The translations under genes and the position numbers were made by a program. 64,000 bases of DNA from a virus. Shown piece by piece: positions 47,991 to 63,173 of this stretch. The stretch lies in IMG/VR virus record IMGVR_UViG_3300043466_002666. One strand, 5' to 3'. Position 1 is the first letter of the stretch, and each line of letters opens with the position of its first letter. Below the pieces are notes generated by a model, which made no database searches, was not told the DNA's origin, and saw nothing but the letters and a program-made list of their open reading frames with translations.

Positions 47991-48093
47991 GTGTAAAAAT
48001 TTTTCCGAGATTATTTTAAATGTCTCGGAAAGACATAGAGTAATATATGATAATTGCTCTCGGAGACTTGTGTTTGTTGGGAGAGGCATAATT

Positions 48094-48684
48094 TTAAATT
48101 TTTTTTAGTTTGGCGCAAGAACTTCCAGAGGAGATTGCATTATGTAAACTTTTGGCAAAAGCTTTTGGAGTTTTTGTTCTTGTTCTTAACTGAATCCAAT
48201 TCCAATTATCTTCAATCCAACCAGTTAAATTTGTACCACTATAAACTTCTCCAGTAATTCCATCTAAAAGTTTAAATTGTTTTGCAGTAATTTTAATCAT
48301 ATTCTCTTTTCTAGAGACCCACTTTAAATTATTTGCATGGTTGTTTAATTTATTAGAGTCAATGTGGTCAATTTCTTTGTACTTATGTGGATTTTCTAAG
48401 AAACATTCTGCTATTAATCTATGCACATAATATTTTATTTGCTTTTCAGTTTTCCCCTCGGCATTTTTTAGAGAAATATTAATGGCTAGATACCTATCAG
48501 TTGGATTACTTCCACCTCTTGGGTGTTGTTTTAATTCTCTAAGGCTTCCTTTTTTAGAGATACATCCAGAAGTTCCTTTAATATGTGTTGAATACCATTC
48601 AGTGAAAACTTTACCATCTTCTGAAACATAATAACCATCGAACTTTGTGGGTAAAATTTTCTGGGAAAAATTTTTTTGATTCAT
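48094..48684 (-). CDS. HNH homing endonuclease (NUMOD4-HNH type); likely start MNQKNF at 48684
   Basis: YYVSEDGKV, YVHRLIAECFLENP...IDHIDSNKLNNHANNLKWVSRKEN. Confidence 0.88.
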   Translation of the reverse strand: MNQKNFSQKILPTKFDGYYVSEDGKVFTEWYSTHIKGTSGCISKKGSLRELKQHPRGGSNPTDRYLAINISLKNAEGKTEKQIKYYVHRLIAECFLENPHKYKEIDHIDSNKLNNHANNLKWVSRKENMIKITAKQFKLLDGITGEVYSGTNLTGWIEDNWNWIQLRTRTKTPKAFAKSLHNAISSGSSCAKLKKI

Positions 48685-48764
48685 TGAGTATATCGAAGTC
48701 GATGGATAAGGTTTATAGCTTATATAGTATCTATTTTTTTCACGGCCCGGCGGGCCGGCGACCC

Positions 48765-48878
48765 ATAAGGCCCGCTTATACTGCCCTGCCCGACTGATCA
48801 GGACTGCTGATGGATCAGGAATGCTGATCTGTCTTGCCACTGGCTGATAAGCACTGCTGATGGATCAGGAATGCTGAT
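48765..48878. repeat. array of five AT(A/C)AG-N5-CT(T/G)AT palindromic boxes, including a 26-bp exact direct repeat
   Basis: Boxes at 48765, 48797, 48814, 48847 and 48864; ACTGCTGATGGATCAGGAATGCTGAT at 48803-48828 and 48853-48878. Confidence 0.85.
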
Positions 48879-48911
48879 GGAAGGGGCCAGCCTGGCTAGC
48901 CCCGTTGCTGA

Positions 48912-49079
48912 TCAGGCCAACTCTAGCCAGCCATCCACATAGGTGTTCACTCCGAACACTAGGGCTGCAGCCTTGGCCTCAGCCTGCTGGCGGGTCTCGG
49001 CCTTAATGCTGATAAGCTCAGCCATCAGCTCGGCGGTCTCGGGTGCGGGGTAGAAAGCGGTGAAGGTAAAGGTGGCCAT
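48912..49079 (-). CDS. early small hypothetical protein (55 aa, not in ORF track)
   Basis: MATFTFTAFYPAPETAELMAELISIKAETRQQAEAKAAALVFGVNTYVDGWLELA; own TGc-TACAAT promoter at 49115-49107 and GGGAG SD. Confidence 0.75.
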   Translation of the reverse strand: MATFTFTAFYPAPETAELMAELISIKAETRQQAEAKAAALVFGVNTYVDGWLELA

Positions 49080-49151
49080 TGGGGTTCTCCCTTGGTTGAC
49101 TAGTCAATTGTAGCACGGATGGGGCCAGCCTGGCCAGCCCCTGGCTGCTGA

Positions 49152-49376
49152 TCAGTCAGCCGATGCAGCCGCTAGCAGTTCGGCGATCTGATCAAACCGA
49201 TCCCACGCTGCCTTGCCCACGGCGCTGCAGCCGCTGGGGGTAAGGTCTGGCCGACGACCCTCTACGGCATCCCGCCAGAGGCTGTGCCAGCGTGTTGCGG
49301 CGTCAGCTAGCTGGCTTTGCAGCTGGCGGGCCTCGTTACGGGTGAGGGTCAGTGTGATAGTGGTTTGCTTAGCCAT
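49152..49376 (-). CDS. early small hypothetical protein
   Basis: 74 aa, GC-rich codons, A/C-rich leader, upstream hairpin. Confidence 0.72.
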   Translation of the reverse strand: MAKQTTITLTLTRNEARQLQSQLADAATRWHSLWRDAVEGRRPDLTPSGCSAVGKAAWDRFDQIAELLAAASAD

Positions 49377-49438
49377 GGTTCGGGTGTGGTTGATCGGTGG
49401 AAGTGGAAGGGGAGGCCCGGAGGCCTCCCGTGTGGGGG

Positions 49439-49624
49439 TCAGGCTAGGACTCGGTTCAGCCTGTTGTGGAGCGCCTGGGCGCAGAATTGGCCCCGGATCC
49501 CCATGGTGAGGGATGCCCCACGGTGAGGGATCAGATCCACCCAGGCGGTGGCCCCGCTCCGCCAGATGGCAAGGCGGAAGCCCAGGGCGTGAAGGGCGGT
49601 GATGTCGGCGGCGTTGTGGGTCAT
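49439..49624 (-). CDS. early small hypothetical protein
   Basis: 61 aa directly behind a TTGACA-18-TATAAT promoter cassette. Confidence 0.72.
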   Translation of the reverse strand: MTHNAADITALHALGFRLAIWRSGATAWVDLIPHRGASLTMGIRGQFCAQALHNRLNRVLA

Positions 49625-49704
49625 GGTCTCGGGGTTGTGGGGGACCGTTTGCCCCCGTTGAAAGAATTATAGAGGGTGGAAGGGCCAGCTGTCAATCAGC
49701 TGGC
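49622..49704 (-). promoter_or_regulatory. early promoter/stem-loop/leader cassette, copy 1
   Basis: GGCCAGCTG-ATTGA-CAGCTGGCC hairpin containing TTGACA (49695-49690), 18 bp, TATAAT (49671-49666), then leader hairpin GGGGGCAAACGGTCCCC. Confidence 0.85.
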
Positions 49705-49713
49705 CTGTATGGG

Positions 49714-49998
49714 TCACCAATCGCTGGGGTCGTACTGATCACAGAGCCAGTCGGCCCGCTCAGCTTCTGTCATTGGCCTAGTGAGGCTGAGCGGGCCGCA
49801 GGCCCAGATCTCAGCTTCCTCGCCTTGCTCAACCGGGCAGGCCCAGCTGAGAATCATCCCAGAGGGGAGATACAGCCACGCCCTGGTGGGCTGGCCAGCC
49901 TTGGTATCCACATAGAGCCAGTGGATCACTGTCTGAAACTTAGGGGGAAGCTGGAGCTGGCCCACGGTGCAAGGGGTGAACAGATCAGCAGTTTGCAT
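49714..49998 (-). CDS. early hypothetical protein; likely start MQTADLF at 49998
   Basis: ORF behind cassette copy 2, with the same CCCGAGACC-ATG leader end as the 49624 gene. Confidence 0.72.
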   Translation of the reverse strand: MQTADLFTPCTVGQLQLPPKFQTVIHWLYVDTKAGQPTRAWLYLPSGMILSWACPVEQGEEAEIWACGPLSLTRPMTEAERADWLCDQYDPSDW

Positions 49999-50081
49999 GG
50001 TCTCGGGTGGTAGTGGGGGACCGTTTGCCCCCGTGATCACAATTGTAGAGGGTGGAAGGGCCAGCCGTCAAGCAGCTGGCC
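49996..50081 (-). promoter_or_regulatory. early promoter/stem-loop/leader cassette, copy 2
   Basis: Near-identical to 49622-49704; TTGACG (50071-50066), 18 bp, TACAAT (50047-50042). Confidence 0.85.
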
Positions 50082-50089
50082 CGATGGGC

Positions 50090-50413
50090 TCAAACTGTGG
50101 CGTTGCGATCCTGGCTCCAGTCCCGGAGCCGGCGAGTGCTGGCCTTGCTGAACACCCGGTCCCCAATGGTGCGGCCATCAGCCAGGGTGATTACAGAGCG
50201 CCCAGCGGCGTCAGCCGCTATCTGCAGAGCCTGGCGGCCAAGCTTGCGCTCTGCAGGCAGAGCGGTGGGGCTCTCCCACAGATCCAGCAACCATTGGGCA
50301 CGATGCCGGCCAACGATGCAGCCGGTTTTGATCGTGACCTTGGCTACTGCCACAGCCACGGGGGTGGGGATGCTGGTGCGGGTGAGGCGGTCAGAGCGGT
50401 TGGGGTTTGCCAT
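50090..50413 (-). CDS. early basic hypothetical protein
   Basis: 107 aa, AGGA SD, own TACAAT -10 at 50461-50456. Confidence 0.72.
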   Translation of the reverse strand: MANPNRSDRLTRTSIPTPVAVAVAKVTIKTGCIVGRHRAQWLLDLWESPTALPAERKLGRQALQIAADAAGRSVITLADGRTIGDRVFSKASTRRLRDWSQDRNATV

Positions 50414-50455
50414 GTTCCTGGGGGTGTGCGGGCTCCTGTCGGCCCGCTTGATGTA

Positions 50456-50516
50456 ATTGTAGGGGATGGGGGGACCCTGCCTATGGGTCAGGCCCCGGAT
50501 TGTTGCAATCTGTCAC
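50456..50516 (-). promoter_or_regulatory. early promoter lacking -35, with HLR1-like direct repeat
   Basis: GTGACAGA-TT-GCAACAAT (50516-50499), 37 bp upstream of TACAAT. Confidence 0.55.
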
Positions 50517-50794
50517 ACTGACGGCAACCCAGCAACCCAGGCTGCTGCAGCCGCCAAGCTGGAGAACTCAGCTCCCACGCTGGGGCATTGCCAGACGCTA
50601 AAGCAGCGGCGCTCCCATTGGCCGGCGTCATTGTGATCGTATGGGGCGTCTACCATAACGCTCACAACCTGATCCACTCGGATCAAGTGAACCCAGCCAC
50701 GGCGGCCCCTGATGGCGGCCTGCCAGTCCCGAACCCAGCGGCGCTGGCCGGGAGCTGGAGAGAAGACGGCTGGGCGGGAAGCTTGGCTGATCAT
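50513..50794 (-). CDS. early hypothetical protein (Trp-rich)
   Basis: 93 aa behind a TATACT -10 at 50824-50819. Confidence 0.68.
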   Translation of the reverse strand: MISQASRPAVFSPAPGQRRWVRDWQAAIRGRRGWVHLIRVDQVVSVMVDAPYDHNDAGQWERRCFSVWQCPSVGAEFSSLAAAAAWVAGLPSV

Positions 50795-50818
50795 GGCTGA
50801 ATGCCTCAGGACTCATTA

Positions 50819-50879
50819 AGTATACAGACTAGGAAGGGCCAGCCGTGGCTGACTGACCCGGTTTGTTGCAAAGCTTAAT
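50819..50879 (-). promoter_or_regulatory. early promoter lacking -35, with HLR1-like direct repeat
   Basis: ATTAAGCT-TT-GCAACAAA (50879-50862), 37 bp upstream of TATACT. Confidence 0.5.
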
Positions 50880-50881
50880 CT

Positions 50882-51640
50882 CTACACTTTGCTGGTGAGA
50901 ATCGGCTGAAGCTCTTTACGATAGCCTCCGAACTTACCAGCCCGGCGGCGTGCAAACAATGCTTTGCCGTAGGTTGAACCTTTAGGCTGGGTTGAATGCA
51001 CAAGCAAAGCAAACGGATTGTCGCCGAAACAGTGGCTATCATCATGATCAACCTCTAAACCCAAAGCCTCAGCTTCCTCGTCATTGTGAACCACTTTACT
51101 ATAACGAGGGAACAAACCTTCGTCGATCATGTGATCGAACTTGCCCCCATAGCTGGCGGTCATGTAGAAGTTAGAAGGCAACTCCAAACCTACAAACAGC
51201 GGCAGGTTCTTGCTGTAGCAGTAGAACTTGAGATCAGGATTAAGCTTGGCAACCTCTAGCCAAGCGAGCAAGTAAGCGAGGCTAAAGAAGTCGCCGGACT
51301 CGTGAATTCTCACCAGCTCGATCCTTTTAGTGCGAGCATTCTGCAGGCTGGTGTTCAACAACTCTACAGCAGTGCTGGCCTTAATCGCATCTGCGATTAG
51401 CTGGAGATTGCGAGCCCGAGAGAAAAACGGGCCATCGTATTGTGCCTCGCTGGTTGCAGCAAAGCACCGAAACTGAGTTTGCGGGCCGTCTTGAATGTGG
51501 CGCTTGCCGTTCTCACCAACAACAGCAAAGCTCAGGCAGAAAAGGGCACCGGGGCAGGTCTTGCCTGCCGGCAGGTTGAAAATCAGAGTTTGCTTGCCAA
51601 GCTTGGCGTTGCCGGTGGAAAAGGTCAGCAGATCAGACAT
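50882..51640 (-). CDS. GP88-family protein (radical-SAM-like, Cys-containing)
   Basis: GNAKL, LPAGKTCPGA..C, CFA, RIHESGDFFS, FYCYSK motifs. Confidence 0.8.
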   Translation of the reverse strand: MSDLLTFSTGNAKLGKQTLIFNLPAGKTCPGALFCLSFAVVGENGKRHIQDGPQTQFRCFAATSEAQYDGPFFSRARNLQLIADAIKASTAVELLNTSLQNARTKRIELVRIHESGDFFSLAYLLAWLEVAKLNPDLKFYCYSKNLPLFVGLELPSNFYMTASYGGKFDHMIDEGLFPRYSKVVHNDEEAEALGLEVDHDDSHCFGDNPFALLVHSTQPKGSTYGKALFARRRAGKFGGYRKELQPILTSKV

Positions 51641-51667
51641 GGGTCTGTGTCGGTGGTTGACTTGAAA

Positions 51668-51719
51668 ATCTTAGCAGGTGGGAAGGGCCAGGCTGGCCGG
51701 CCCTGTAACAAAATGAAAT
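51668..51719 (-). promoter_or_regulatory. early promoter lacking -35, with HLR1-like direct repeat
   Basis: ATTTCATT-TT-GTTACAGG (51719-51702), 28 bp upstream of TAAGAT, which carries a TG extension. Confidence 0.6.
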
Positions 51720-51720
51720 A

Positions 51721-51885
51721 CTATACTTTAGCCAGGCAATTGTCGATAAAGACAAACAGCTCGCCCAGGTCAATGGTAGAGTTAACCCAGCGAACAGCAG
51801 AGCCATATTCAGCCAAGAATTCATCAGCAACTAGACACCCAGCTGCAAAGTCTAGGGCTTCAAAATAGCTTAGGGTCGGGTTCAT
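51721..51885 (-). CDS. early small hypothetical protein (54 aa, not in ORF track)
   Basis: MNPTLSYFEALDFAAGCLVADEFLAEYGSAVRWVNSTIDLGELFVFIDNCLAKV behind a TAGGAT -10. Confidence 0.7.
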   Translation of the reverse strand: MNPTLSYFEALDFAAGCLVADEFLAEYGSAVRWVNSTIDLGELFVFIDNCLAKV

Positions 51886-51909
51886 TGGTGTGCCTGCAAG
51901 TGCCTGTTA

Positions 51910-51961
51910 ATCCTACAGCAATGGGTGAGCCCGAAGACTCACCCATGTAACATTATGTAAT
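51910..51961 (-). promoter_or_regulatory. early promoter lacking -35, with near-consensus HLR1 repeat and UUCG hairpin
   Basis: ATTACATA-AT-GTTACATG (51961-51944), 28 bp upstream of TAGGAT; spacer is the hairpin TGGGTGAGTC-TTCG-GGCTCACCCA. Confidence 0.65.
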
Positions 51962-51963
51962 AT

Positions 51964-52155
51964 CTACATCTCCAGCTGCCAATCTTGGTCTTTAAGTATA
52001 TTTACCCAAAAGAAGTTTCGTCCATTCATACTACGCAGGAACACTTTGTCTCCTTTGTGTTGTTCTACAATACAATGTTCGCATGATTCCATTAGATTAG
52101 CGAACCTGTTTTTAGCTTTCTTTGAGATTGGCTTAACCGAAATCATCGGATCCAT
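51964..52155 (-). CDS. conserved cyanophage-type small hypothetical protein
   Basis: 63 aa, PISKKAKNRFANLM...CIVEQ...FFWV. Confidence 0.75.
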   Translation of the reverse strand: MDPMISVKPISKKAKNRFANLMESCEHCIVEQHKGDKVFLRSMNGRNFFWVNILKDQDWQLEM

Positions 52156-52185
52156 GATGAGACTTTGCGATTGATTATGCTTAAT

Positions 52186-52236
52186 AATTTAAGCATGATG
52201 AGAGCAGCAATGAGTTCAGCTGTCACAATTTGTTAT
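52186..52236 (-). promoter_or_regulatory. early promoter lacking -35, with HLR1-like direct repeat
   Basis: ATAACAAA-TT-GTGACAGC (52236-52219), about 27 bp upstream of TAAATT. Confidence 0.5.
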
Positions 52237-52283
52237 AGTTAATAATTTGGTGGGGAGTTGCCTCCCCGTGTATAGTTAATAAT

Positions 52284-52547
52284 TTAGACAGTAACAGTTA
52301 CTAATTCTTCAGTCTTTCGGCCATCAGCAATGGTAGAACCAATGCTAACATCTTTCAGCATCTGATCATTAGTAAGCAAATCACTCAGGAATTGTGCATA
52401 AGACTCACTACATGTGAATGTGTATGCTTTGTCTACATTGCTGTGATAAGTGATAATAATATCAGTATTGTCTACAGTAATGGAATGAATGGCACTGGAC
52501 TGTTCTTTAGTAAACTGACGGTGAACAGGAGAGATTGCAACGGTCAT
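52284..52547 (-). CDS. KTSC-like small protein; likely start MTVAISP at 52547
   Basis: SSAIHSI...IIITY...AYTF...SIG pattern; the upstream annotated part overlaps its promoter. Confidence 0.6.
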   Translation of the reverse strand: MTVAISPVHRQFTKEQSSAIHSITVDNTDIIITYHSNVDKAYTFTCSESYAQFLSDLLTNDQMLKDVSIGSTIADGRKTEELVTVTV

Positions 52548-52577
52548 GGTGTTCTGTGTGTTGTGTGTACAGTTAAT

Positions 52578-52633
52578 AATGTAGCTGGTGGGGGCTGAGG
52601 TTGTCAACCCCTTTGGGCCAGTTTCAGAATTGG
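52578..52633 (-). promoter_or_regulatory. early promoter cassette (duplicated at 52921-52976)
   Basis: TTGACA-18-TACATT plus upstream CCAGTT-N4-AATTGG; about 52-bp near-identical copy at 52921. Confidence 0.82.
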
Positions 52634-52758
52634 ATCTCGTCTAGAGTTGGCTCTGCAGAGTTTGTATCATCGTCTGCAGTCAACATGTCCAGAATCGAGA
52701 GAATCTCATTGCCAGTTTGGCCTTTACGAAGCATTGAAATCAGAACTGCTGTAGACAT
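52624..52758 (-). CDS. early small hypothetical protein (44 aa, not in ORF track)
   Basis: MSTAVLISMLRKGQTGNEILSILDMLTADDDTNSAEPTLDEIQF. Confidence 0.7.
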   Translation of the reverse strand: MSTAVLISMLRKGQTGNEILSILDMLTADDDTNSAEPTLDEIQF

Positions 52759-52763
52759 AATAA

Positions 52764-52898
52764 TCAATAATCGTAGTTGGAGTTAATGAAAGCAACAAAA
52801 TGTTGCTGGGCTTCGGCATCATCATCAGCAGGAATCAGCATATCATCCTGCCAATCATAAACCTCAGCTTCAAGTTCAACGAAATCGTAGGTGTCCAT
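52764..52898 (-). CDS. early highly acidic micro-protein (44 aa, not in ORF track)
   Basis: MDTYDFVELEAEVYDWQDDMLIPADDDAEAQQHFVAFINSNYDY; first gene behind the 52921-52950 promoter. Confidence 0.7.
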   Translation of the reverse strand: MDTYDFVELEAEVYDWQDDMLIPADDDAEAQQHFVAFINSNYDY

Positions 52899-52920
52899 TG
52901 GTTCAGTAGTGAACATTGAT

Positions 52921-52976
52921 AATGTAGCTGGTAGGGGTTGGACTTGTCAACCCCTTTGGGCCGGTTTCAGAACTGT
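52921..52976 (-). promoter_or_regulatory. early promoter cassette, second copy
   Basis: TTGACA (52950-52945), 18 bp, TACATT; CCGGTT-N4-AACTGT 10 bp upstream of the -35. Confidence 0.82.
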
Positions 52977-53143
52977 CAGTCTAGGCAACCGTTGGCGTTC
53001 AGCCAGCCAGCACACCAGCCCTCACCAGTGTAGCATCCGACATAGTAGTTGCCAATTGAAATACCAAACTGTTCTTCCATGTGGTAGGTATTCTTCAGAT
53101 CCCAACCGAGATAGAAGAACTTGGTGTGAATGGAGAATTTCAT
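52976..53143 (-). CDS. early small hypothetical protein (55 aa, not in ORF track)
   Basis: MKFSIHTKFFYLGWDLKNTYHMEEQFGISIGNYYVGCYTGEGWCAGWLNANGCLD behind its own promoter. Confidence 0.7.
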   Translation of the reverse strand: MKFSIHTKFFYLGWDLKNTYHMEEQFGISIGNYYVGCYTGEGWCAGWLNANGCLD

Positions 53144-53166
53144 GGTCTTGTGTGGTTGACTTGTTC

Positions 53167-53222
53167 AGTATGGCATGGGTTGGGGGCTGGTGTCAACCCC
53201 CTGATTGATTAGTAATACTAAT
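53167..53222 (-). promoter_or_regulatory. early promoter with LysR-type box
   Basis: TTGACA (53196-53191), 18 bp, TGc-CATACT; ATTAG-N5-CTAAT at 53208-53222. Confidence 0.75.
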
Positions 53223-53404
53223 CAGACATCATAACAGAGGTATTCCATCATCTCTTCTTTATACATTGCAGTCTCAGCTTCAGTGTTAAATTTAACACCT
53301 GCGAGGAAGTTGTAATGGTCAACCCAAGATGCACACCATGTCATTTTGTAGTCATGATTTGCAACTGAGTTGTACTGATTGCAAGTGTCGAGAATCAGAG
53401 CCAT
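53222..53404 (-). CDS. early small hypothetical protein
   Basis: 60 aa behind a TTGACA-17-TAAGTT promoter. Confidence 0.7.
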   Translation of the reverse strand: MALILDTCNQYNSVANHDYKMTWCASWVDHYNFLAGVKFNTEAETAMYKEEMMEYLCYDV

Positions 53405-53431
53405 TGGAGTGGTTCAGAAGTGAACAAAGGT

Positions 53432-53508
53432 AACTTAACCGATTTTCAGGGTCCTGTCAACCCTCTGACTGATTAGCTGTCCTTATGGTGTTGATAAGGG
53501 TTGCTAAT
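53432..53508 (-). promoter_or_regulatory. early promoter with tandem LysR-type boxes
   Basis: TTGACA (53460-53455), 17 bp, TAAGTT; boxes at 53472-53486 and 53494-53508. Confidence 0.7.
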
Positions 53509-53666
53509 TCAGTTTCATCTAATCCCAGAACATATTCTTCAATTACATTCTCCATGAATGTGTAGTTGTTACTATAGAGCTGTTCTTGTAGCAGTTCGAT
53601 AGCTTCGTCTTGATTCATGGAATGTAGATTAAAGAAACTAATCACTTCAGTGTAGTCAACCATCAA
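53457..53666 (-). CDS. acidic small hypothetical protein
   Basis: 69-aa helical acidic ORF. Confidence 0.65.
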   Translation of the reverse strand: MMVDYTEVISFFNLHSMNQDEAIELLQEQLYSNNYTFMENVIEEYVLGLDETELATLINTIRTANQSEG

Positions 53667-53809
53667 TAATCACTCCCATCATTATAATGATCATAATTAG
53701 CCATTACAGCTGCAATAGCATTATAATAACCCGCCTGGGAGTTATCATAAAAGATCTTTGCTAGTGATGCAATTAGGGCTTCCAAAGAAGGTCTCTCAGG
53801 GACATATGC

Positions 53810-53910
53810 AATATAGGCCATTTTCGGGTGCCTGTCAAGTGGTGAATGATTAGCAATGCTTATGGGTGTATGATGTATAGTTAATAATCTCTGATATTAG
53901 CAATACTAAT
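53810..53910 (-). promoter_or_regulatory. early promoter with LysR-type boxes
   Basis: TTGACA (53838-53833), 17 bp, TATATT; boxes at 53849-53863 and 53896-53910. Confidence 0.7.
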
Positions 53911-53975
53911 CGGAGGGGCTCGGAATGATTTGGAGTCCTTATGGGTTTTTTGATGGGTTTTTTGGGCCGGGGGGC

Positions 53976-54004
53976 TTGACAAATTCGGCGTGATGTGGTA
54001 TACT
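53976..54004 (+). promoter_or_regulatory. strong plus-strand sigma70-type promoter
   Basis: TTGACA-17-TATACT with TG extension; two ATGGGTTTTTTG repeats (53941-53964) just upstream. Confidence 0.85.
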
Positions 54005-54009
54005 GCGGG

Positions 54010-54170
54010 CCAAGACTGCTGAACCTCCGAACCTTTCTGAGACAATCAGACACATTCGGAGGTATACAGTATATACTTAATAATCTATCACATATACTTG
54101 GAGGTATACAGTATATACTTAATAATCTATCACATATACTTGGAGGTATACAGTATATACTTAATAATTC
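54010..54170 (+). ncRNA. putative structured non-coding RNA or origin primer transcript
   Basis: Downstream of a consensus promoter with no credible ORF; stems ACCTCCGAA/TTCGGAGGT and TCTGA/TCAGA, then tandem repeats. Confidence 0.45.
54058..54168. repeat. 42-bp tandem repeat, about 2.6 copies
   Basis: GGAGGTATACAGTATATACTTAATAATCTATCACATATACTT at 54058 and 54100, partial copy at 54142. Confidence 0.95.
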
Positions 54171-54230
54171 TCTCTCTCTATACACATCACAAACTTATAT
54201 TTTTTATTACATTTAATATAATGTTAATAA

Positions 54231-54830
54231 TTACTTATATCCATACTCACCTTTCCGCATCACTTCTATCCATCTATTCAATCCATCAATGATTCTTTGA
54301 TCTGTTTCTTGTGGTAGATAATAATCTTGTATACACTTTATCTTTGCATTGAGATATGCTTGATATGCTTCTTCTAATGTATAAAAATACCCAAGATGAA
54401 CTCGTTTTGCATTCATATAAATTTTGACATAAAATGGTTTAGTTTTGTTGGTATTAACTCGACTAACTCCAGTTACATATTTGGTAGTAGATTTACGATG
54501 TAAAAGAAGGTTTAATCGTTGGTCTACAAATACACATTTATCTGGTCCATAAACTTTATTGCCAGGATACATTATATCCTTATCTAATTGTTTACCTAGT
54601 ACATTACCTTGCTCTAGATACCATTTTCTGAAATTGGAGAATGTATGCCATTCTGGTGTTACACTACAACCTTCATAAGATGAATACCTAGGATTGTTAG
54701 AATAGCACCTTTCTAGCATTTTCGACCAACTACTATAGGCAGGACAGAATACACTTTTACCATTTATACATGGTCGAACAGTATAATCAGCATCATTAAC
54801 ACCTATCCCACACACAAGTTTTTTCTTCAT
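54231..54830 (-). CDS. HNH-type homing endonuclease with AP2-like C-terminal domain
   Basis: GIGVND, YSSWSKMLERCY, EWHTFSNF, QLDKDI...Y.PDKCVFV...N, HLGYF...EAYQAY. Confidence 0.82.
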   Translation of the reverse strand: MKKKLVCGIGVNDADYTVRPCINGKSVFCPAYSSWSKMLERCYSNNPRYSSYEGCSVTPEWHTFSNFRKWYLEQGNVLGKQLDKDIMYPGNKVYGPDKCVFVDQRLNLLLHRKSTTKYVTGVSRVNTNKTKPFYVKIYMNAKRVHLGYFYTLEEAYQAYLNAKIKCIQDYYLPQETDQRIIDGLNRWIEVMRKGEYGYK

Positions 54831-54834
54831 AAGT

Positions 54835-55173
54835 TCATTTCTTTTTGTTGGTTAGTTCAATTCGCTTTATGATTTCTGCTTGTTCGTCTTCTCTATCTGC
54901 TTCTGCCTTCTTGTTAGCATGATACCTTGCTACTCTATCTCTTTCTGCCTGTAGTCTTTCTTTTTGACTTTGATTTAATTGCCTTTGTCTTTCTGATACA
55001 TCTTCACCGAGTTTGTATTCTCTTGGGCCTCGGTCTGGATTTTTGTCAATATACTTCTGCACTGCCTTAGCACCGATTCCACCTTGTTTCTTTAATTGCT
55101 TCTCGATGTGCTTCTTAGAGTACAATGGTTTGACTTTCTTTGCTTCTTCTAGAAATTGCTTAAAAGTAATCAT
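54835..55173 (-). CDS. probable internal head protein with capsid-targeting-like N-terminus
   Basis: MITFKQFLEE resembles the T4 IP targeting sequence MKTYQEFIAE; CTAAATA late core at about 55207-55201. Confidence 0.7.
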   Translation of the reverse strand: MITFKQFLEEAKKVKPLYSKKHIEKQLKKQGGIGAKAVQKYIDKNPDRGPREYKLGEDVSERQRQLNQSQKERLQAERDRVARYHANKKAEADREDEQAEIIKRIELTNKKK

Positions 55174-55221
55174 TTTGAATGTTTTTGAAGGGCTATGATG
55201 TATTTAGTTGGAATGGGAGTT

Positions 55222-55368
55222 TTAGTGTGAAAAACTAGTGTTTTTTGGTCGTAAATACTGAGCTTTGAGGTGGTTCAGAGATTGCTTCCTAGCCTTGAGT
55301 TTGCCTTTGCAGGTGCCTTTTGTGCTTTTTGGTTTGTTAGAGTGATGTTGCCAATTTGGTGTTATCAT
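55222..55368 (-). CDS. small basic hypothetical protein (48 aa, not in ORF track)
   Basis: MITPNWQHHSNKPKSTKGTCKGKLKARKQSLNHLKAQYLRPKNTSFSH. Confidence 0.6.
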   Translation of the reverse strand: MITPNWQHHSNKPKSTKGTCKGKLKARKQSLNHLKAQYLRPKNTSFSH

Positions 55369-55499
55369 GGGATTTTGAAATAAAAACCACTCTGGTGTGG
55401 AGTGGTTGATGTTTGCTTATTTAGTTTTGGTATAGGTATGATAGGTACCAAAGATCTTAATAGTTTTTGGCTTTGGATTGTGGTGATAGGGTTTTTTAC

Positions 55500-55772
55500 T
55501 CATAGTGTTTGTACCTCGTTCAGAATGTTGTTAATGTCAGTTTCATCTTGGTGGCCTAATACATCTTCCGTGATAGGTGTATCATAGCACAGTTCATATT
55601 TATCTGGTGTGCCTTTCAGAATAGCTATTTCATATAGATCATCTTGAAATCCATAGGAACCAGGAAAGCGTACTACAGATACACCATAACCATTAGGGAA
55701 AAAGTGTACTGCCTGAATGCCATCATCCTTGAAATACGGATGTGATTCAAAGTTCAAATCAGTGAAGTTCAT
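55500..55772 (-). CDS. conserved phage hypothetical protein; likely start MNFTDL at 55772
   Basis: FPNGYGVSVV...SYG...LYEIAIL...YDTPITEDVLG. Confidence 0.75.
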   Translation of the reverse strand: MNFTDLNFESHPYFKDDGIQAVHFFPNGYGVSVVRFPGSYGFQDDLYEIAILKGTPDKYELCYDTPITEDVLGHQDETDINNILNEVQTL

Positions 55773-55927
55773 TTGCAGTGATGGTGATTGGGATATTTCA
55801 TGCAATACACTTGATGTACTGCTCGATATTCTGTGTCTATCAGTTTACCATTATCACGAAGAACAGCAAGAGTATTCCAACCAATGATAATAGCAAAAGC
55901 ACAAATAGCAGTTGGAATCAGTTTCAT
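55769..55927 (-). CDS. small membrane protein; likely start MKLIPT at 55927
   Basis: Hydrophobic N-terminal segment; ATGA coupling with neighbours. Confidence 0.6.
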   Translation of the reverse strand: MKLIPTAICAFAIIIGWNTLAVLRDNGKLIDTEYRAVHQVYCMKYPNHHHCK

Positions 55928-56100
55928 GCATTGTACCCTTCGATTTGAAGTAAAGCACGACGGCAATCATATGCCTGTGTTTGTGAATTGAATGTTGCTA
56001 CCTTTTGAAATGGTTCTAGCCTATAGATAGACCATTTCGTAGAACCAATCTCTTGCATGATGCGATAGGGATTGTCAATACCAAGTGGATACGGTTTCAT
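55924..56100 (-). CDS. small hypothetical protein (58 aa, not in ORF track)
   Basis: MKPYPLGIDNPYRIMQEIGSTKWSIYRLEPFQKVATFNSQTQAYDCRRALLQIEGYNA; ATGA overlaps at both ends. Confidence 0.68.
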   Translation of the reverse strand: MKPYPLGIDNPYRIMQEIGSTKWSIYRLEPFQKVATFNSQTQAYDCRRALLQIEGYNA

Positions 56101-56345
56101 GCTTCGATGATAGAGAAGGAACCACAGAATTTGCGAACCCAGTTTAGAGTATCTTTGTAGTTTCTCGGATTAGAGAGAACTGCAGTAGCATTATTGCGTG
56201 GATTGTGAGCAATAGCAACATACTGATTGTCATCAACCTCTTCAATCCACATCTGATTTACATTACCATCTTGCCAATCCCAGCGAGATGTGGTGTAGTG
56301 ATACACTTCACGAGGCTTGCGGTTTGTGGTGAATGTTTGGATCAT
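56097..56345 (-). CDS. hypothetical protein
   Basis: 82 aa behind its own promoter. Confidence 0.72.
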   Translation of the reverse strand: MIQTFTTNRKPREVYHYTTSRWDWQDGNVNQMWIEEVDDNQYVAIAHNPRNNATAVLSNPRNYKDTLNWVRKFCGSFSIIEA

Positions 56346-56370
56346 GGGTGGTTCCCTTGACTACCTTTGT

Positions 56371-56424
56371 ATATTAGCCCACCTGGGGCGGAAGGTCAAC
56401 CTCTGATTGATCAGTCTTCTTAAT
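56371..56424 (-). promoter_or_regulatory. early promoter with LysR-type box
   Basis: TTGACC (56399-56394), 17 bp, TAATAT; ATCAG-N5-TTAAT at 56410-56424. Confidence 0.65.
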
Positions 56425-56559
56425 GGTGCGGAAACGTTTCCGCATTTCATACTGATGGTTCCGTGTGAATGCGTAAAGAATCACAACAAGTGCTCCAGCC
56501 AATCCTGCAACAGCAGCAATAGCATTGATCTCAGTGGGGAAAGTAGTGGTTTCAATCAT
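56374..56559 (-). CDS. small single-TM membrane protein
   Basis: AIAAVAGLAGALVVILYAF transmembrane segment. Confidence 0.65.
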   Translation of the reverse strand: MIETTTFPTEINAIAAVAGLAGALVVILYAFTRNHQYEMRKRFRTIKKTDQSEVDLPPQVG

Positions 56560-56776
56560 CTAGAATACCTTCTAAGCGTGGTAGTGTAAAAGTTATGTAG
56601 TCTGGGTCTTCTTCAAGAAGTTCTCGATACTCATCATAGATTGCAATGGCATTGAAAACATTCTTGCTCATCTTTTTGCCCTTTTTGGTTTTCAATGCAC
56701 GTTTATCAAATAGCTCCATTCGATTTCGTGCATTGACTTCAGACAAAAAGATTGAATAATCAACTGGGTCCATCAT
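56552..56776 (-). CDS. hypothetical protein
   Basis: 74 aa, overlapping operon arrangement. Confidence 0.65.
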   Translation of the reverse strand: MMDPVDYSIFLSEVNARNRMELFDKRALKTKKGKKMSKNVFNAIAIYDEYRELLEEDPDYITFTLPRLEGILDD

Positions 56777-56918
56777 TGTGAGGATCTCCTTTTCCTTCTA
56801 GTGATTTGGCGAAAAGTTCAACATACTTTTCAAGATATGCAGTATCGTAGGCTGCAAGATGATTCTTTGATAATTCCTTGTGCATGTTGTTCAGGTTGGT
56901 CCAATCTTCGTCGTTCAT
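56760..56918 (-). CDS. small hypothetical protein (52 aa, not in ORF track)
   Basis: MNDEDWTNLNNMHKELSKNHLAAYDTAYLEKYVELFAKSLEGKGDPHNDGPS; ATGA-coupled to the phosphoesterase. Confidence 0.65.
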   Translation of the reverse strand: MNDEDWTNLNNMHKELSKNHLAAYDTAYLEKYVELFAKSLEGKGDPHNDGPS

Positions 56919-57547
56919 AGTTCCAAATCAATGTGTTCTAATTCACCCAGACCAATGTATTCAACACCTTTGTGTATGGTGTGATGATTTACATGCCAAT
57001 GTCCATGAATGAATAGATCTGGTTTGTGAATCTCTAGTATATTATCAAGAAACTGACGAGTGATAGATGGATCGTCATATTTCGTTTTATTACACTTAGA
57101 GCACACTATGTATGTTAGACTCTCTGGCATTTCATGTGCCACAATGATAGATGGTTTGAGTTTCTCATATACATCGCACACAATGAGAAACTCTTTATAT
57201 GATAATTCTTCATTCACCCACCAGTTGTAACCTTCTGTTCTGTAATGTGCATCAATAGATTTTGCACCACCAATACAGAAGATTTTATCATGAACCATTG
57301 TGCCATCAGGTATCCAGAATGGATGCTTTTTACATACACTTGGATTGTCATGATTGCCACGAATGAATCGGTGATCACCTTTTTTCATGGAATCATATGG
57401 TGGATTAGAATGAACTTGCTCAGTGATCTTACTCACAAAGCCAACACCGAAGTCACCAACCTGAATCGAAGTATCGCATTCATTGATGATCTTCTTATAC
57501 TTTTTCCAATTACCATGAACATCACCAATGAAGCGAATACTTTTCAT
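56915..57547 (-). CDS. calcineurin-like metallophosphoesterase
   Basis: GDVHG, QVGDFG, RGNHD, AHE, HGHWH motifs. Confidence 0.9.
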   Translation of the reverse strand: MKSIRFIGDVHGNWKKYKKIINECDTSIQVGDFGVGFVSKITEQVHSNPPYDSMKKGDHRFIRGNHDNPSVCKKHPFWIPDGTMVHDKIFCIGGAKSIDAHYRTEGYNWWVNEELSYKEFLIVCDVYEKLKPSIIVAHEMPESLTYIVCSKCNKTKYDDPSITRQFLDNILEIHKPDLFIHGHWHVNHHTIHKGVEYIGLGELEHIDLEL

Positions 57548-57870
57548 TTGTTAAACCATTTGTAGATATAATATATTGCAAACAGAATGATTGCAACTAG
57601 AATCACATAGCGAAACACATAGACAGCCATCATGGCACCGAAGAGCAGAATCCAGAACCAACTACCATCAGACGATCCACTAGAATACGATTCGGATGAG
57701 TTATTAGATGATCGTGAACTAATTGGATTGCACGTAACAACTTCTTTTGCACCATAAGTTGATTTAATCTGTGCAATAGCATCTTGTCGTACAATACCAG
57801 GAGTTTCAATCTCGATGTTCTGAAGAACATTAGATTGAGTTCGGATTGTTGCTAACCAGCGTTGTCCCAT
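57544..57870 (-). CDS. membrane protein with C-terminal TM segments
   Basis: Ser-rich linker followed by a hydrophobic C-terminus. Confidence 0.7.
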   Translation of the reverse strand: MGQRWLATIRTQSNVLQNIEIETPGIVRQDAIAQIKSTYGAKEVVTCNPISSRSSNNSSESYSSGSSDGSWFWILLFGAMMAVYVFRYVILVAIILFAIYYIYKWFNK

Positions 57871-57871
57871 G

Positions 57872-58048
57872 TTACTGTCCTACTTTGTAAATAATGCAAC
57901 GCTTAAACTCTTGCCACTCAGTATCGCTAAAGTTATCACTAGCATAAGGAATACCAACATCACTGGCACATTGCCTTGCAATACTTTCAGGAACAGGAGT
58001 CGATAGGAAATCATACTGAATGATTGTGGCCAGAAGAATTGGAATCAT
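57872..58048 (-). CDS. small secreted/membrane protein (58 aa, not in ORF track)
   Basis: MIPILLATIIQYDFLSTPVPESIARQCASDVGIPYASDNFSDTEWQEFKRCIIYKVGQ. Confidence 0.65.
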   Translation of the reverse strand: MIPILLATIIQYDFLSTPVPESIARQCASDVGIPYASDNFSDTEWQEFKRCIIYKVGQ

Positions 58049-58269
58049 GATTCAGAAGTGAAACGGTCAGCCCAGAGTTCGTAAAACATTTCCCGAAGAT
58101 TCTCAATCATTGTATAACGCTGAATGATTGGATTCTCCATGGGAATATCATATAGCCCATCATCATATGGTGCTACAAGTTGAAATGTATCTAGGGCATG
58201 ATGTAGAATCTCATTGATGAGTTCATGTTGGGATTCTGTCAGAGTGACAGTGATGTTACTTTCGTTCAT
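58045..58269 (-). CDS. hypothetical protein
   Basis: 74-aa acidic ORF in operon. Confidence 0.68.
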   Translation of the reverse strand: MNESNITVTLTESQHELINEILHHALDTFQLVAPYDDGLYDIPMENPIIQRYTMIENLREMFYELWADRFTSES

Positions 58270-58271
58270 GA

Positions 58272-58508
58272 TCAGTTGTTAGTGTTAATGTTCAGTCCAC
58301 CGAAAATCATACGAACACCAACAATGATGCCCCAGATTTGCCAGATGGTGAGTACAGTGTAATTAAACAGGTTCACCAGAATCCAGTGAACAATCCATGC
58401 AGGAATCAACATGAATGCAGCACCAAGTGCAAATAGTAGCACAGCTACAATAACAATTCCCAGGCCAGTACCTAAGATCTCAGCCCAGGTAGTGTTGTTG
58501 TTTGACAT
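58272..58508 (-). CDS. two-TM membrane protein; likely start MSNNN at 58508
   Basis: Long hydrophobic stretches; promoter at 58562-58590. Confidence 0.7.
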   Translation of the reverse strand: MSNNNTTWAEILGTGLGIVIVAVLLFALGAAFMLIPAWIVHWILVNLFNYTVLTIWQIWGIIVGVRMIFGGLNINTNN

Positions 58509-58561
58509 AATGCGTCGTCGGCGTGATGTGCGGGTCAAGAAACCTCCGTCTCAACAAAGAT

Positions 58562-58616
58562 ACAATAGGATGATTTGGCTGGCTTGTCAAGGGGGGTGTG
58601 CCAGCCTGGCAACTGG
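58562..58616 (-). promoter_or_regulatory. early promoter with CCAG-N8-CTGG inverted repeat
   Basis: TTGACA (58590-58585), 17 bp, TATTGT; CCAGCC-N4-AACTGG starting 10 bp upstream of the -35. Confidence 0.65.
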
Positions 58617-58617
58617 T

Positions 58618-59859
58618 TCAGTCAACATAGTATTCAGGAGGAATGCCCTGCTTGAATACAAAGTCTACCACAGATTGCAGACGCTGTTGTGTATTCTTAC
58701 CATAATTTTTGTGAACTGGTACAGTCACAAAGCCATATGATTTACGATATGACATATAATCACCAGGAGTGAGTACACCATTAGCCATATCTTGTGCATC
58801 TTCACGATCTACACGAATCACACGACCAATAGTTTGACACATCTCAATCACATTGAGATTTCGCAGGAGCACAGAATGTGTGAGCCCTGGGCAGTTGATA
58901 CCTTCACTGAGAATAGAATAGTGAAACAATACAAATTTCTTCTGTTTGTCTTGTCCCCACTTAGTCATTGTCTCAAAGAATACTTCACGATTCACTTTCT
59001 TGTCATTGACATATGCACCTTCTTTAGATGTGATGTGAAGAATCTCATAGCCACGCTGTTTGAACTGATTCATCACATCAGTACGAAACAACATCTGACA
59101 CAATACACGAGTGCTAGGTGCAGCTACCAATACTTTCTGTGCTTTGGTATCATCAAGACCATCCAGAATATCCAATAGAGTCTTAGCATCATGCTTGGCT
59201 GCATTGTCTTTATCACGCTCACCATCAATCTCATGAATTTGTACCATTGGAGGAATGATACTACCATTCTCGATCAGTTCAGGTGCAGGTACATTCTCGA
59301 TCACCTGACCAAACACAATAGAGTTATTCATGCCACGACCTTTAGGGTTCTGTGACAGTTTAGGTGTAGCAGTGAAATAGTATGCAGACTCTGCATGTTG
59401 AGACATCATTGCAGTAGAATAAAAGAAGTCTCGCTTACAGGCATTGTGAGCCTCATCAAAGTAGACTGTATCAATGTGTATTCCACTGTCAATAACACGA
59501 TGAAGAGAATGATAAGTAGTAAAAAGTAATTGGTGTTCATTGTTGAATTTGACCATGTTATGAAACATGGTAATTTGATCAGGATTAGTTGTAGAGAAAT
59601 GCTTAGTCTCACCAGAGTGAACATGGGCAACCACAGCATTGGTGATCTGATCAGTGAACTCTGCACAGAGCTGATTGGCCAGAAGGATCCTGGGAGCCAC
59701 CACAAGGGCTGTGAAGGGCTTCTGTGCCTCATTCAGACGACGAATCAGATCACGGATCATGATCAGGGTCTTGCCTCCGCCAGTGGGCACATACACCTGG
59801 CCCATACGAACCAGTTCCATCTTGGTGAGGCTACGGCTTTGGTGGGGTCGAAGCTTCAT
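58618..59859 (-). CDS. SF2 DEAH helicase (ResIII-like); likely start MKLRPHQ at 59859
   Basis: LRPHQ, PTGGGKT, DEAH, FTATP, LSEGIN, QTIGRVIR; promoter TTGACA-18-TATGGT at 59910-59881 lies inside the longer track ORF. Confidence 0.9.
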   Translation of the reverse strand: MKLRPHQSRSLTKMELVRMGQVYVPTGGGKTLIMIRDLIRRLNEAQKPFTALVVAPRILLANQLCAEFTDQITNAVVAHVHSGETKHFSTTNPDQITMFHNMVKFNNEHQLLFTTYHSLHRVIDSGIHIDTVYFDEAHNACKRDFFYSTAMMSQHAESAYYFTATPKLSQNPKGRGMNNSIVFGQVIENVPAPELIENGSIIPPMVQIHEIDGERDKDNAAKHDAKTLLDILDGLDDTKAQKVLVAAPSTRVLCQMLFRTDVMNQFKQRGYEILHITSKEGAYVNDKKVNREVFFETMTKWGQDKQKKFVLFHYSILSEGINCPGLTHSVLLRNLNVIEMCQTIGRVIRVDREDAQDMANGVLTPGDYMSYRKSYGFVTVPVHKNYGKNTQQRLQSVVDFVFKQGIPPEYYVD

Positions 59860-59917
59860 GGTGAAAACAGCAATGGGTCCACCATACCATGGCAGACCCA
59901 AGCTTGTCAAGAGTTAT

Positions 59918-62994: not shown

Positions 62995-63173
62995 TTTAAT
63001 CCAACCTCTTTCAAGTATTCATGGTAACGCATAAATCGAGTGAGTGATGGGTGTCCTGGTGGATTCAAGCTCCAACAGCACTCAGTATAGGATAAAAACT
63101 CATACCAAGGCGTGGTTGGATCCAGAACATGAACTGGCACAGTATCAGAGTTTTCCACCAACAACTCCTTCAT
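62991..63173 (-). CDS. small hypothetical protein
   Basis: DPTTPWYEFLSY.ECC motif; operon context. Confidence 0.65.
   Translation of the reverse strand: MKELLVENSDTVPVHVLDPTTPWYEFLSYTECCWSLNPPGHPSLTRFMRYHEYLKEVGLK

Follow-up and report, generated by a model that had tools for sequence, protein, structure and literature searches.

In the 64,000-nucleotide stretch of viral DNA analysed here (IMG/VR virus record IMGVR_UViG_3300043466_002666; hereafter the window), the minus strand between positions 50456 and 59910 bears a series of promoters that have a common anatomy and a fixed geometry, are conserved in related viruses, exchange their upstream boxes at orthologous genes and have insertions and deletions at their borders. 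This promoter block is a hyperplastic run of small open reading frames (ORFs) between the helicase and baseplate genes, and it appears to be built from self-contained one-gene expression cassettes. Each comprises a recognition element of 16-18 bp that is centred about 50-55 nt upstream of the predicted start site, a -10 box, a conserved leader and, over the -35 region, a GC-rich stem-loop (with or without TTGACA). The upstream elements fall into three classes. A model with one general element in two variants (classes 1 and 3) and one lineage-specific alternative (class 2), all docking candidate proteins, seems to us fairly probable; class 2 would be a second, lineage-restricted palindrome of LysR-type transcriptional regulator (LTTR) type that takes the same place as the class 1/3 element. 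The conservation of particular bases in the elements, the constancy of their spacing and their helical phasing make docking of one or more DNA-binding proteins their most likely role, and such proteins would help the host RNA polymerase to use the cassette promoters. The stem-loops would insulate neighbouring cassettes, and homology between cassettes would drive gene shuffling, as in the promoter-early stem-loop (PeSL) cassettes of other T4-like phages.

Anatomy of the promoter cassettes

Promoters, -10 boxes and cassettes were predicted from the sequence, and the cassette names carry a position on the minus strand. Between 50456 and 59910 there are eight promoters with TTGACA or TTGACC and five -10 units without a good -35 hexamer (Table 1). 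The twelve box-carrying promoters of an original prediction, according to which their upstream motifs stand at fixed distances, were re-found at the coordinates given there, together with a plain helicase promoter. The three classes are mutually exclusive and spatially clustered within the window, as had been proposed. Moreover, the geometry is conserved in nine related IMG/VR contigs that are 67-93% identical over the region, and all three box classes recur at the same offsets in the relatives. A megablast search of the whole region against isolated phages returned nothing, and no isolate is close at the DNA level. The motif positions had also been regarded as typical of activator sites, a view that is upheld by invariant half-sites, variable spacers, a spacing fixed to about 1 nt and the helical phasing of class 1.

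The class 2 box

In the four class 2 promoters of the window the half-site CTAAT ends 10-11 nt before TTGAC, and both the spacing and the enrichment anticipated for boxes of the type ATTAG-N5-CTAAT hold: the pattern ATWAG-N5-CTAATCA, with at most one mismatch, has 8 matches against 1.5 expected in 64 kb, a number reached in 0 of 100 shuffles, and all 8 fall within 740 bp (53206-53942). An alignment of 35 cassettes from seven genomes (the window and six non-redundant relatives) gave the consensus [G/C]AT[T/A]AG-n-A-nnn-CTAATCA with 27 distinct boxes, in which AT.AG and CT.AT are near-invariant and the N5 middle is free. In 34 of the 35 cassettes the distance from the start of the box to TTGAC is 15-16 nt, though the intervening bases differ, and its dyad centre, computed from the offsets to the predicted promoters, lies at about -54.5, again in 34 of 35. 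As the box is AT-rich and has a variable spacer but never changes at its G and C positions, class 2 is better taken as a base-specific site than as a recent copy.

The distribution of the box is narrow. The exact 18-mer was found in only about ten IMG/VR contigs, mostly the relatives already fetched, with one to three copies each, while a looser scan of IMG/VR with 14 bases gave, among the matches listed, almost exclusively contigs unrelated to the clade. In a complete relative of 172 kb, boxes are confined to about 1-4 kb, the hyperplastic region, and all perfect ones lie within 1.2 kb. Synechococcus phage S-CREM1 has two class 2 boxes with the same geometry, one of them at the orthologous promoter of the helicase gene. 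No enrichment of the box was detected in Syn9, S-CRM01 or S-PM2, and a search with the class 2 cassette against isolated phages gave chance matches only.

A class 2 RNA hairpin was rejected on the counted pairs, which show no compensatory change; the left-half variant ATAAG is never compensated on the right half (A.A in 12 of 35). The known sites of NtcA, Fur, LexA and CRP, CIRCE and the Pho-box were set aside for misfits of half-site or spacing. Two further arrays recall the box. At the edge of a GC-rich island, near the start of an HNH ORF, positions 48794-48895 hold tandem ATCAG-N5-CTGAT-like palindromes (family D6) with a half-site one base off class 2. In the marine phage Sf-FR1 (L136), four tandem ATTAGTAATACTAA-like units occur in one intergenic region upstream of SfFR1_62, beside a GP88-family gene; apart from their right half, they are similar to the class 2 box.

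A candidate core common to classes 1 and 3

Classes 1 and 3 share one position-locked palindromic core of 7 bp with a free middle base, and we read both as variants of a general early-promoter element of T4-like cyanophages. The core was scanned for as the heptamers TG[T/C]nACA and [G/C]TGnCAC, with a -10 box and then a start codon required downstream, in the window, six relatives, Syn9, S-SRM01 and Sf-FR1. The offset of its first base to the -10 box peaks at 37 nt (34 cases, with 16, 19 and 12 at 36, 38 and 39 nt) and rises slightly at 46-47 nt, the other bins holding about 3-10 (one of 14 at the edge). The reversed pattern, used as a control, gave 0-1 at 36-39 nt, and it is the sharpness of the peak against this control that argues for a shared core.

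Each class 3 repeat of the window stands exactly 10 nt before TTGACA, as predicted, and CCAGTT-N4-AACTGG with at most two mismatches has 8 matches against 2.4 expected, a number that 0 of 100 shuffles reach. The repeat arms are complementary at only 4-5 of 6 positions, and two of the three copies in the window lie in one duplicated 60-nt cassette (P52950 and P52607; repeat family D7, 87%). One match (63122-63137) was left out of the promoter-site count because it lies inside an apparent conserved small ORF, as judged by hand translation. Better copies exist in relatives, for example CCAGTT-CAAT-AACTGTCACA with a hairpin-only core, as well as in Sf-FR1 and S-SRM01; hairpin-only class 3 cassettes are seen in two relatives (L002, 13376; L003, 14896). 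Upstream of gp78 and gp79 of Syn9 the sequence is CCAGTT or CCAATT, N4, AGGTGGCACA, and a similar unit precedes gp63.

An artefactual origin of class 3 was first favoured, given the duplicate copies, the coding left half of the P52607 repeat (the last codons and stop of ORF 52624-52767) and the class 2 boxes at orthologous promoters; it was withdrawn because of the better copies in the relatives, Sf-FR1, S-SRM01 and Syn9. As an RNA hairpin, class 3 shows no compensatory change among the variants inspected.

The five class 1 elements start 35, 36, 36, 45 and 45 nt before the -10 box, in the order of Table 1. In the relatives the class reads aTT[T/A]C[A/G]nnT-TG[T/C]nACA and immediately precedes a GC hairpin, after which comes a TAGGAT-like -10 box. 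The distance to the -10 box over 27 cassettes is 35 or 36 nt in 20, 44 or 45 nt in five, 54 nt in one and 33 nt in one, and class 1 is therefore helically phased.

Stem-loops and leaders

Hairpins over the -35 region have a mean z of -2.7, against -0.03 in controls, and 10 of 16 promoter regions contain a stable one (z <=-2.5). In class 1 a GC hairpin occupies the place of a canonical -35, although the lack of a -35 is only approximate, degenerate -35-like hexamers being present inside the hairpins. Class 3 promoters of the window keep TTGACA inside the hairpin, and in TTGACA promoters the hexamer lies in the loop or the 3' arm (e.g., GGGGG-TTGACAccag-CCCCC). The promoter that follows the helicase gene has hairpin arms that vary between relatives but remain complementary (GGCTGG/CCAGCC vs GGGCTGTCA/TGACAGCCC). 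The cassette of P53196 is 94-98% identical in relatives, against about 70% for the flanking coding sequence.

A leader palindrome, GTTCA-N4-TGAAC, stands just after the -10 box in many class 2 and class 3 cassettes (53410-53424, 52899-52913 and in relatives) and also in cassettes of S-SRM01; it could be a 5'-untranslated-region hairpin or a second operator. Another motif, ATTATTAAC[T/C]ATA-like, is present on the minus strand in at least six copies (52231-52287, 52565-52584, 53873-53892, 54069-54130), some overlapping the -10 box of P52607, some alone and some inside 42-nt repeats, and it is kept in relatives after TAAATT or TACATT -10 boxes.

Exchange of boxes at orthologous genes

Upstream box and core type recombine freely among the relatives. 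The gene at 52284-52547, served by P52607, has class 3 in the window and in one relative (L001); four relatives have class 2 at this gene, and another (L004) has a GTGTCACA core. The GP88-family gene is preceded by class 1 variants in most relatives and by a class 2 box with a hairpin-only core in two (L007, L009). The gene at 50513-50794, downstream of P50859, is missing from the comparable relatives, with the breakpoint in a repeated cassette segment, and two cassettes (49633-49716 and 50009-50092) are 83% alike and precede unrelated ORFs. Two ORFs of homing-endonuclease type (54231-54830 and 48094-48840) lie inside the shuffled region. The window offers a compact natural experiment, with one core promoter and three interchangeable boxes that are exchanged at orthologous genes.

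Nothing ties any box class to an effector set. Class membership is not conserved at orthologous genes, the boxes lie in one hyperplastic region, and the genes downstream of the cassettes are tiny (ORFs of 47-252 aa, nearly all without a known family), all of which speaks against the separate sets of effectors that had been proposed.

Relation to described systems

A promoter element of Syn9 type in front of the early genes of T4-like cyanophages was reportedly described by Doron and colleagues in The ISME Journal (ISME J 10:1437) in 2016. The Syn9 type resembles the cassettes of the window in its core ([G/C]TGnCAC or TGTnACA), set some 37 nt ahead of the -10 box, in a conserved leader and, as far as class 1 is concerned, in a GC hairpin that replaces the -35; in Syn9 DNA it is seen to precede small genes next to the helicase gene. 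Three features differ: the class 3 elements of the window belong to promoters with a perfect TTGACA as well, window class 1 combines a distal half ATT[T/A]C[A/G] with a TGTnACA core, and the unrelated class 2 box can replace the element in this lineage. From this comparison the cassettes are, in all appearance, Syn9-type promoters plus one lineage-specific box, to which the swapping of boxes at orthologues is added.

PeSL cassettes are known from RB49/phi1, T4/PST and KVP40/nt-1 (PMC2839356, PMC4122927). They are composite sigma-70-type promoters that combine a stem-loop of G-run and C-run with an upstream part rich in AT; they crowd in a hyperplastic region where the ORFs are tiny, and they mark borders of insertions, deletions and replacements between close relatives. 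In the window, likewise, sigma-70-type promoters are combined with G/C stem-loops, concentrated in the hyperplastic region and located at indel and replacement borders. The stem-loop here wraps or replaces the -35, whereas that of PeSLs lies upstream of the promoter, and the upstream part is a defined box of several interchangeable types. In another cyanophage, S-PM2, an earlier study did not find PeSLs to be dense, and shuffling of this kind was judged unlikely there; the present cassettes would extend PeSL-type modular gene shuffling to cyanophages.

The GTGnCAC-type sequence of class 3 and of the Syn9 core, here at about -49 to -43, also recalls CGRE1, to which the GntR-type regulator PMM1637/PlmA binds at yfr2 promoters and which is described as a palindrome of 21-22 nt with GTTG/GTTA...CAAC/TAAC flanks, a GTGnCAC-like middle and a start at about -55 to -57 (PMC6191309). 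Compared with this verbal description, the flanks were not found at the stated spacing at class 3 or Syn9 cores. Short cassette oligonucleotides would be ready baits for pull-down, with RbcR and PlmA as named candidates.

Weighing the alternatives

Several points weigh against the cassette model given above. The core can be registered only to within 1 nt. The link of classes 1 and 3 to the early element reportedly described for Syn9 is drawn from our reading of the Syn9 DNA. None of the promoter hairpins has a T-tail, hence they are not canonical terminators, and we infer from this that they may insulate neighbouring units or protect RNA 3' ends. The cassette counts mix orthologues and paralogues, so the number of independent events is overstated. 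Finally, the label 'early', the start sites and the positions at -50 and -55 are all extrapolated from -10 boxes.

T4-like cyanophages start their programme without MotA and AsiA. By analogy with the MotA-dependent middle promoters and the PmSL cassettes of other T4-like phages, the readers of the boxes might be regulators that the phage encodes or that are injected with the virion, and the boxes would then mark temporal classes (immediate-early, delayed-early, middle, early shut-off). Class 1, without a good -35 and with an upstream element, resembles T4 middle promoters; PmSL cassettes are known in phage nt-1; and the restriction of class 2 to one clade and S-CREM1 would fit a co-evolving phage factor. 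No DNA-binding regulator was recognised among the small ORFs of the region, however, the only DNA-binding-like one being 54231-54830, which corresponds to the C-terminal half of a homing endonuclease. Furthermore, the core is common to distant cyanophage genera, which a conserved host factor would explain better than a phage regulator, and we regard this alternative as unlikely.

Slightly less credit is given to the possibility that class 2 is a true site of the host regulator RbcR, wiring early genes to Calvin-cycle and inorganic-carbon status, or that the box copies titrate RbcR; if titration were true, replicating phage DNA would draw RbcR from the host RuBisCO and carboxysome genes. The RbcR (LysR-type) motif of Synechocystis is ATTA(G/A)-N5-(C/T)TAAT (Bolay et al. 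2022, as quoted in PMC13249358), and class 2 has the same half-sites and 5-nt spacing, with an exact match at 53206-53222 and one mismatch in most other boxes. Active RbcR sites are placed at about -90 for activation or about -10 for repression in a 2026 review (PMC13249358), unlike the class 2 centre at about -54.5; moreover, the left half of class 2 is often ATAAG, and a conserved CA follows its right half. The LysR assignment of the original prediction has the match to the RbcR consensus in its favour and the position against it.

This match is the one element that could still, with a slim chance, carry the wider proposal of the original prediction, in which three host factors read host state, each with effectors of its own: RpaB for light and redox (class 1), an LTTR such as RbcR for carbon (class 2) and a third factor (class 3). 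There is precedent for the idea of cyanophage promoters carrying host-regulator sites, since NtcA and Pho-box/PhoB sites have been predicted in cyanomyovirus genomes (PMC3037559); these are other motifs, scattered over the genome, whereas the boxes of the window are arrayed in cassettes. No literature linking RpaB or RbcR to cyanophage promoters was found. For RpaB the comparison turns on HLR1, two (G/T)TTACA(T/A)(T/A) octamers 2 nt apart, with activating sites centred at about -51 (PMC6525291). Class 1 likewise is a two-part element of 10-bp period near -50 that is joined to a -10 box and lacks a good -35; its centre, predicted from the -10 boxes, lies at about -49.5 or one or two helical turns further. 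The direct repeats foreseen for all five class 1 promoters are indeed present, although a good HLR1 match is limited to 51944-51961 (2 mismatches, centre about -49.5), the other four window sites having 4-6 mismatches out of 16, and the supposed lack of a -35 applies only loosely. Matches to the HLR1 consensus in the window (85 vs 72 expected) amount to no enrichment. RpaB is also disfavoured by the third base of the class 1 proximal TTACA: HLR1 needs a T there, but this is the middle base of the core, which varies freely (T, A or G) across 27 cassettes, and the same core position is held by GTGnCAC in class 3 and Syn9. Three independent inputs are further disfavoured by the core and geometry that classes 1 and 3 share with the Syn9-type upstream element, by a class 2 position that fits neither RbcR location, by the absence of class 2 from Syn9, S-CRM01 and S-PM2, by the swapping of classes at orthologous genes and by the confinement of boxes to a few kb of the complete relative. 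The proposal as a whole is highly doubtful, and no sensor that takes several inputs on host state is evident in the window.

It is just as improbable that no dedicated regulator is involved and that strong constitutive promoters simply include the boxes as UP-element-like or structural parts, whose similarity recombination and gene conversion maintain as in pure PeSLs: the perfect TTGACA of window class 2 and 3 promoters, which should not need an activator, the duplicated cassettes with indels at their borders and the AT-rich tract upstream of the -35 in described PeSLs would suit it, but the invariant G and C inside the AT-rich class 2 box with its variable spacer (27 distinct boxes in 35 cassettes), a spacing kept while the intervening sequence differs and the persistence of the elements across genera whose major capsid proteins are about 70% identical do not.

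Individual cassettes and neighbouring features

Table 1. Predicted promoter cassettes on the minus strand of the window, in order of decreasing position
Promoter	Span	Strand	Class	Upstream element	-35 region	Hairpin	-10 box	Remarks
Helicase promoter	59881..59910	-		no upstream box	TTGACA		TATGGT	TTGACA-18-TATGGT
P58590	58562..58616	-	3	repeat 58601-58616, core CTGGCAC	TTGACA 58585-58590	58581-58606, enclosing TTGACA; z -3.4	58562-58567	core 37 nt before -10
P56399	56371..56425	-	2	degenerate box ATTAA-N5-CTGATCA, 56408-56425	TTGACC 56394-56399		56371-56376	inside 3' end of ORF 56374-56559; kept in all relatives
P53838	53810..53942	-	2	box 53847-53864; further boxes 53896-53912, 53926-53942	TTGACA 53833-53838		53810-53815	
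P53460	53432..53509	-	2	boxes 53470-53487, 53492-53509	TTGACA	53448-53464, around TTGACA	53432-53437	leader palindrome GTTCA-N4-TGAAC
P53196	53167..53223	-	2	best box GATTAGTATTACTAATCA, 53206-53223	TTGACA	G5/C5, 53182-53201, around TTGACA; z -5.4	CATACT 53167-53172	
P52950	52921..52976	-	3	repeat 52961-52976	TTGACA	52934-52954	52921-52926	duplicate of P52607
P52607	52578..52633	-	3	repeat 52618-52633	TTGACA	52591-52611	52578-52583	
P52224	52186..52236	-	1	element 52219-52236, core TGTGACA		weak; z -1.1	TAAATT 52186-52191	
P51944	51910..51961	-	1	element 51944-51961, core TGTTACA		51923-51944; z -4.8	TAGGAT 51910-51915	best HLR1 look-alike
P51704	51668..51719	-	1	element 51702-51719		51684-51704	TAAGAT 51668-51673	upstream of GP88-family gene 50882-51640
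P50859	50819..50879	-	1	element 50862-50879, core TGCAACA		50836-50859	TATACT 50819-50824	core 46 nt before -10
P50496	50456..50516	-	1	element 50499-50516, core TGCAACA		50471-50496	TACAAT 50456-50461	core 46 nt before -10
P50071, P49695, P49147	49107..50082	-				GC hairpin with TTGAC-like loop	follows hairpin	same build, outside 50456-59910; repeat family D4 (84 nt, 83%)

The window belongs to a T4-like cyanomyovirus, with genes for T4-type major head, scaffold, sheath, large terminase and baseplate proteins. Its major capsid protein is 72% identical to that of S-CREM1, and its helicase (58618-59859) has relatives at 55-59% among hundreds of cyanomyoviruses. Nearly all genes of the window, and all genes of the stretch under study, are on the minus strand. 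The syntenic position in Syn9 is gp76-gp93, between helicase gp75 and baseplate gp94.

A GC-rich island at 48000-52000 (GC 0.50-0.56, single genes up to 0.65, against 0.30-0.40 elsewhere) forms part of the run of small ORFs and is kept in the relatives. Its GP88-family gene has DNA matches of 69-76% in S-SRM01 and Sf-FR1, and one scan of a genome collection with the GP88-family protein returned short contigs of metagenome-assembled genomes only, with no cyanobacterium among them. ORF 48094-48840 (minus strand) has an HNH_3 domain, while ORF 54231-54830 (minus strand) aligns with an HNH homing-endonuclease family in the C-terminal half alone (positions 194-390 of 420) and has a faint match to AP2.

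The sole canonical intrinsic terminator of the 12-kb region, a stem with a T-tail at 55385-55407 (minus strand), ends the long, promoter-poor operon 58540-55420. On the plus strand, at 53976-54004 and opposing the direction of the genes, a near-consensus promoter (TTGACA-17-TATACT with a TG) reads into three 42-nt tandem repeats at 54045-54170 that contain no ORF; its product may be a non-coding RNA or an antisense transcript. At 2053-2070, a long way from the hyperplastic region, a divergent pair of consensus promoters occupies both strands and is flanked by long G-runs and C-runs.

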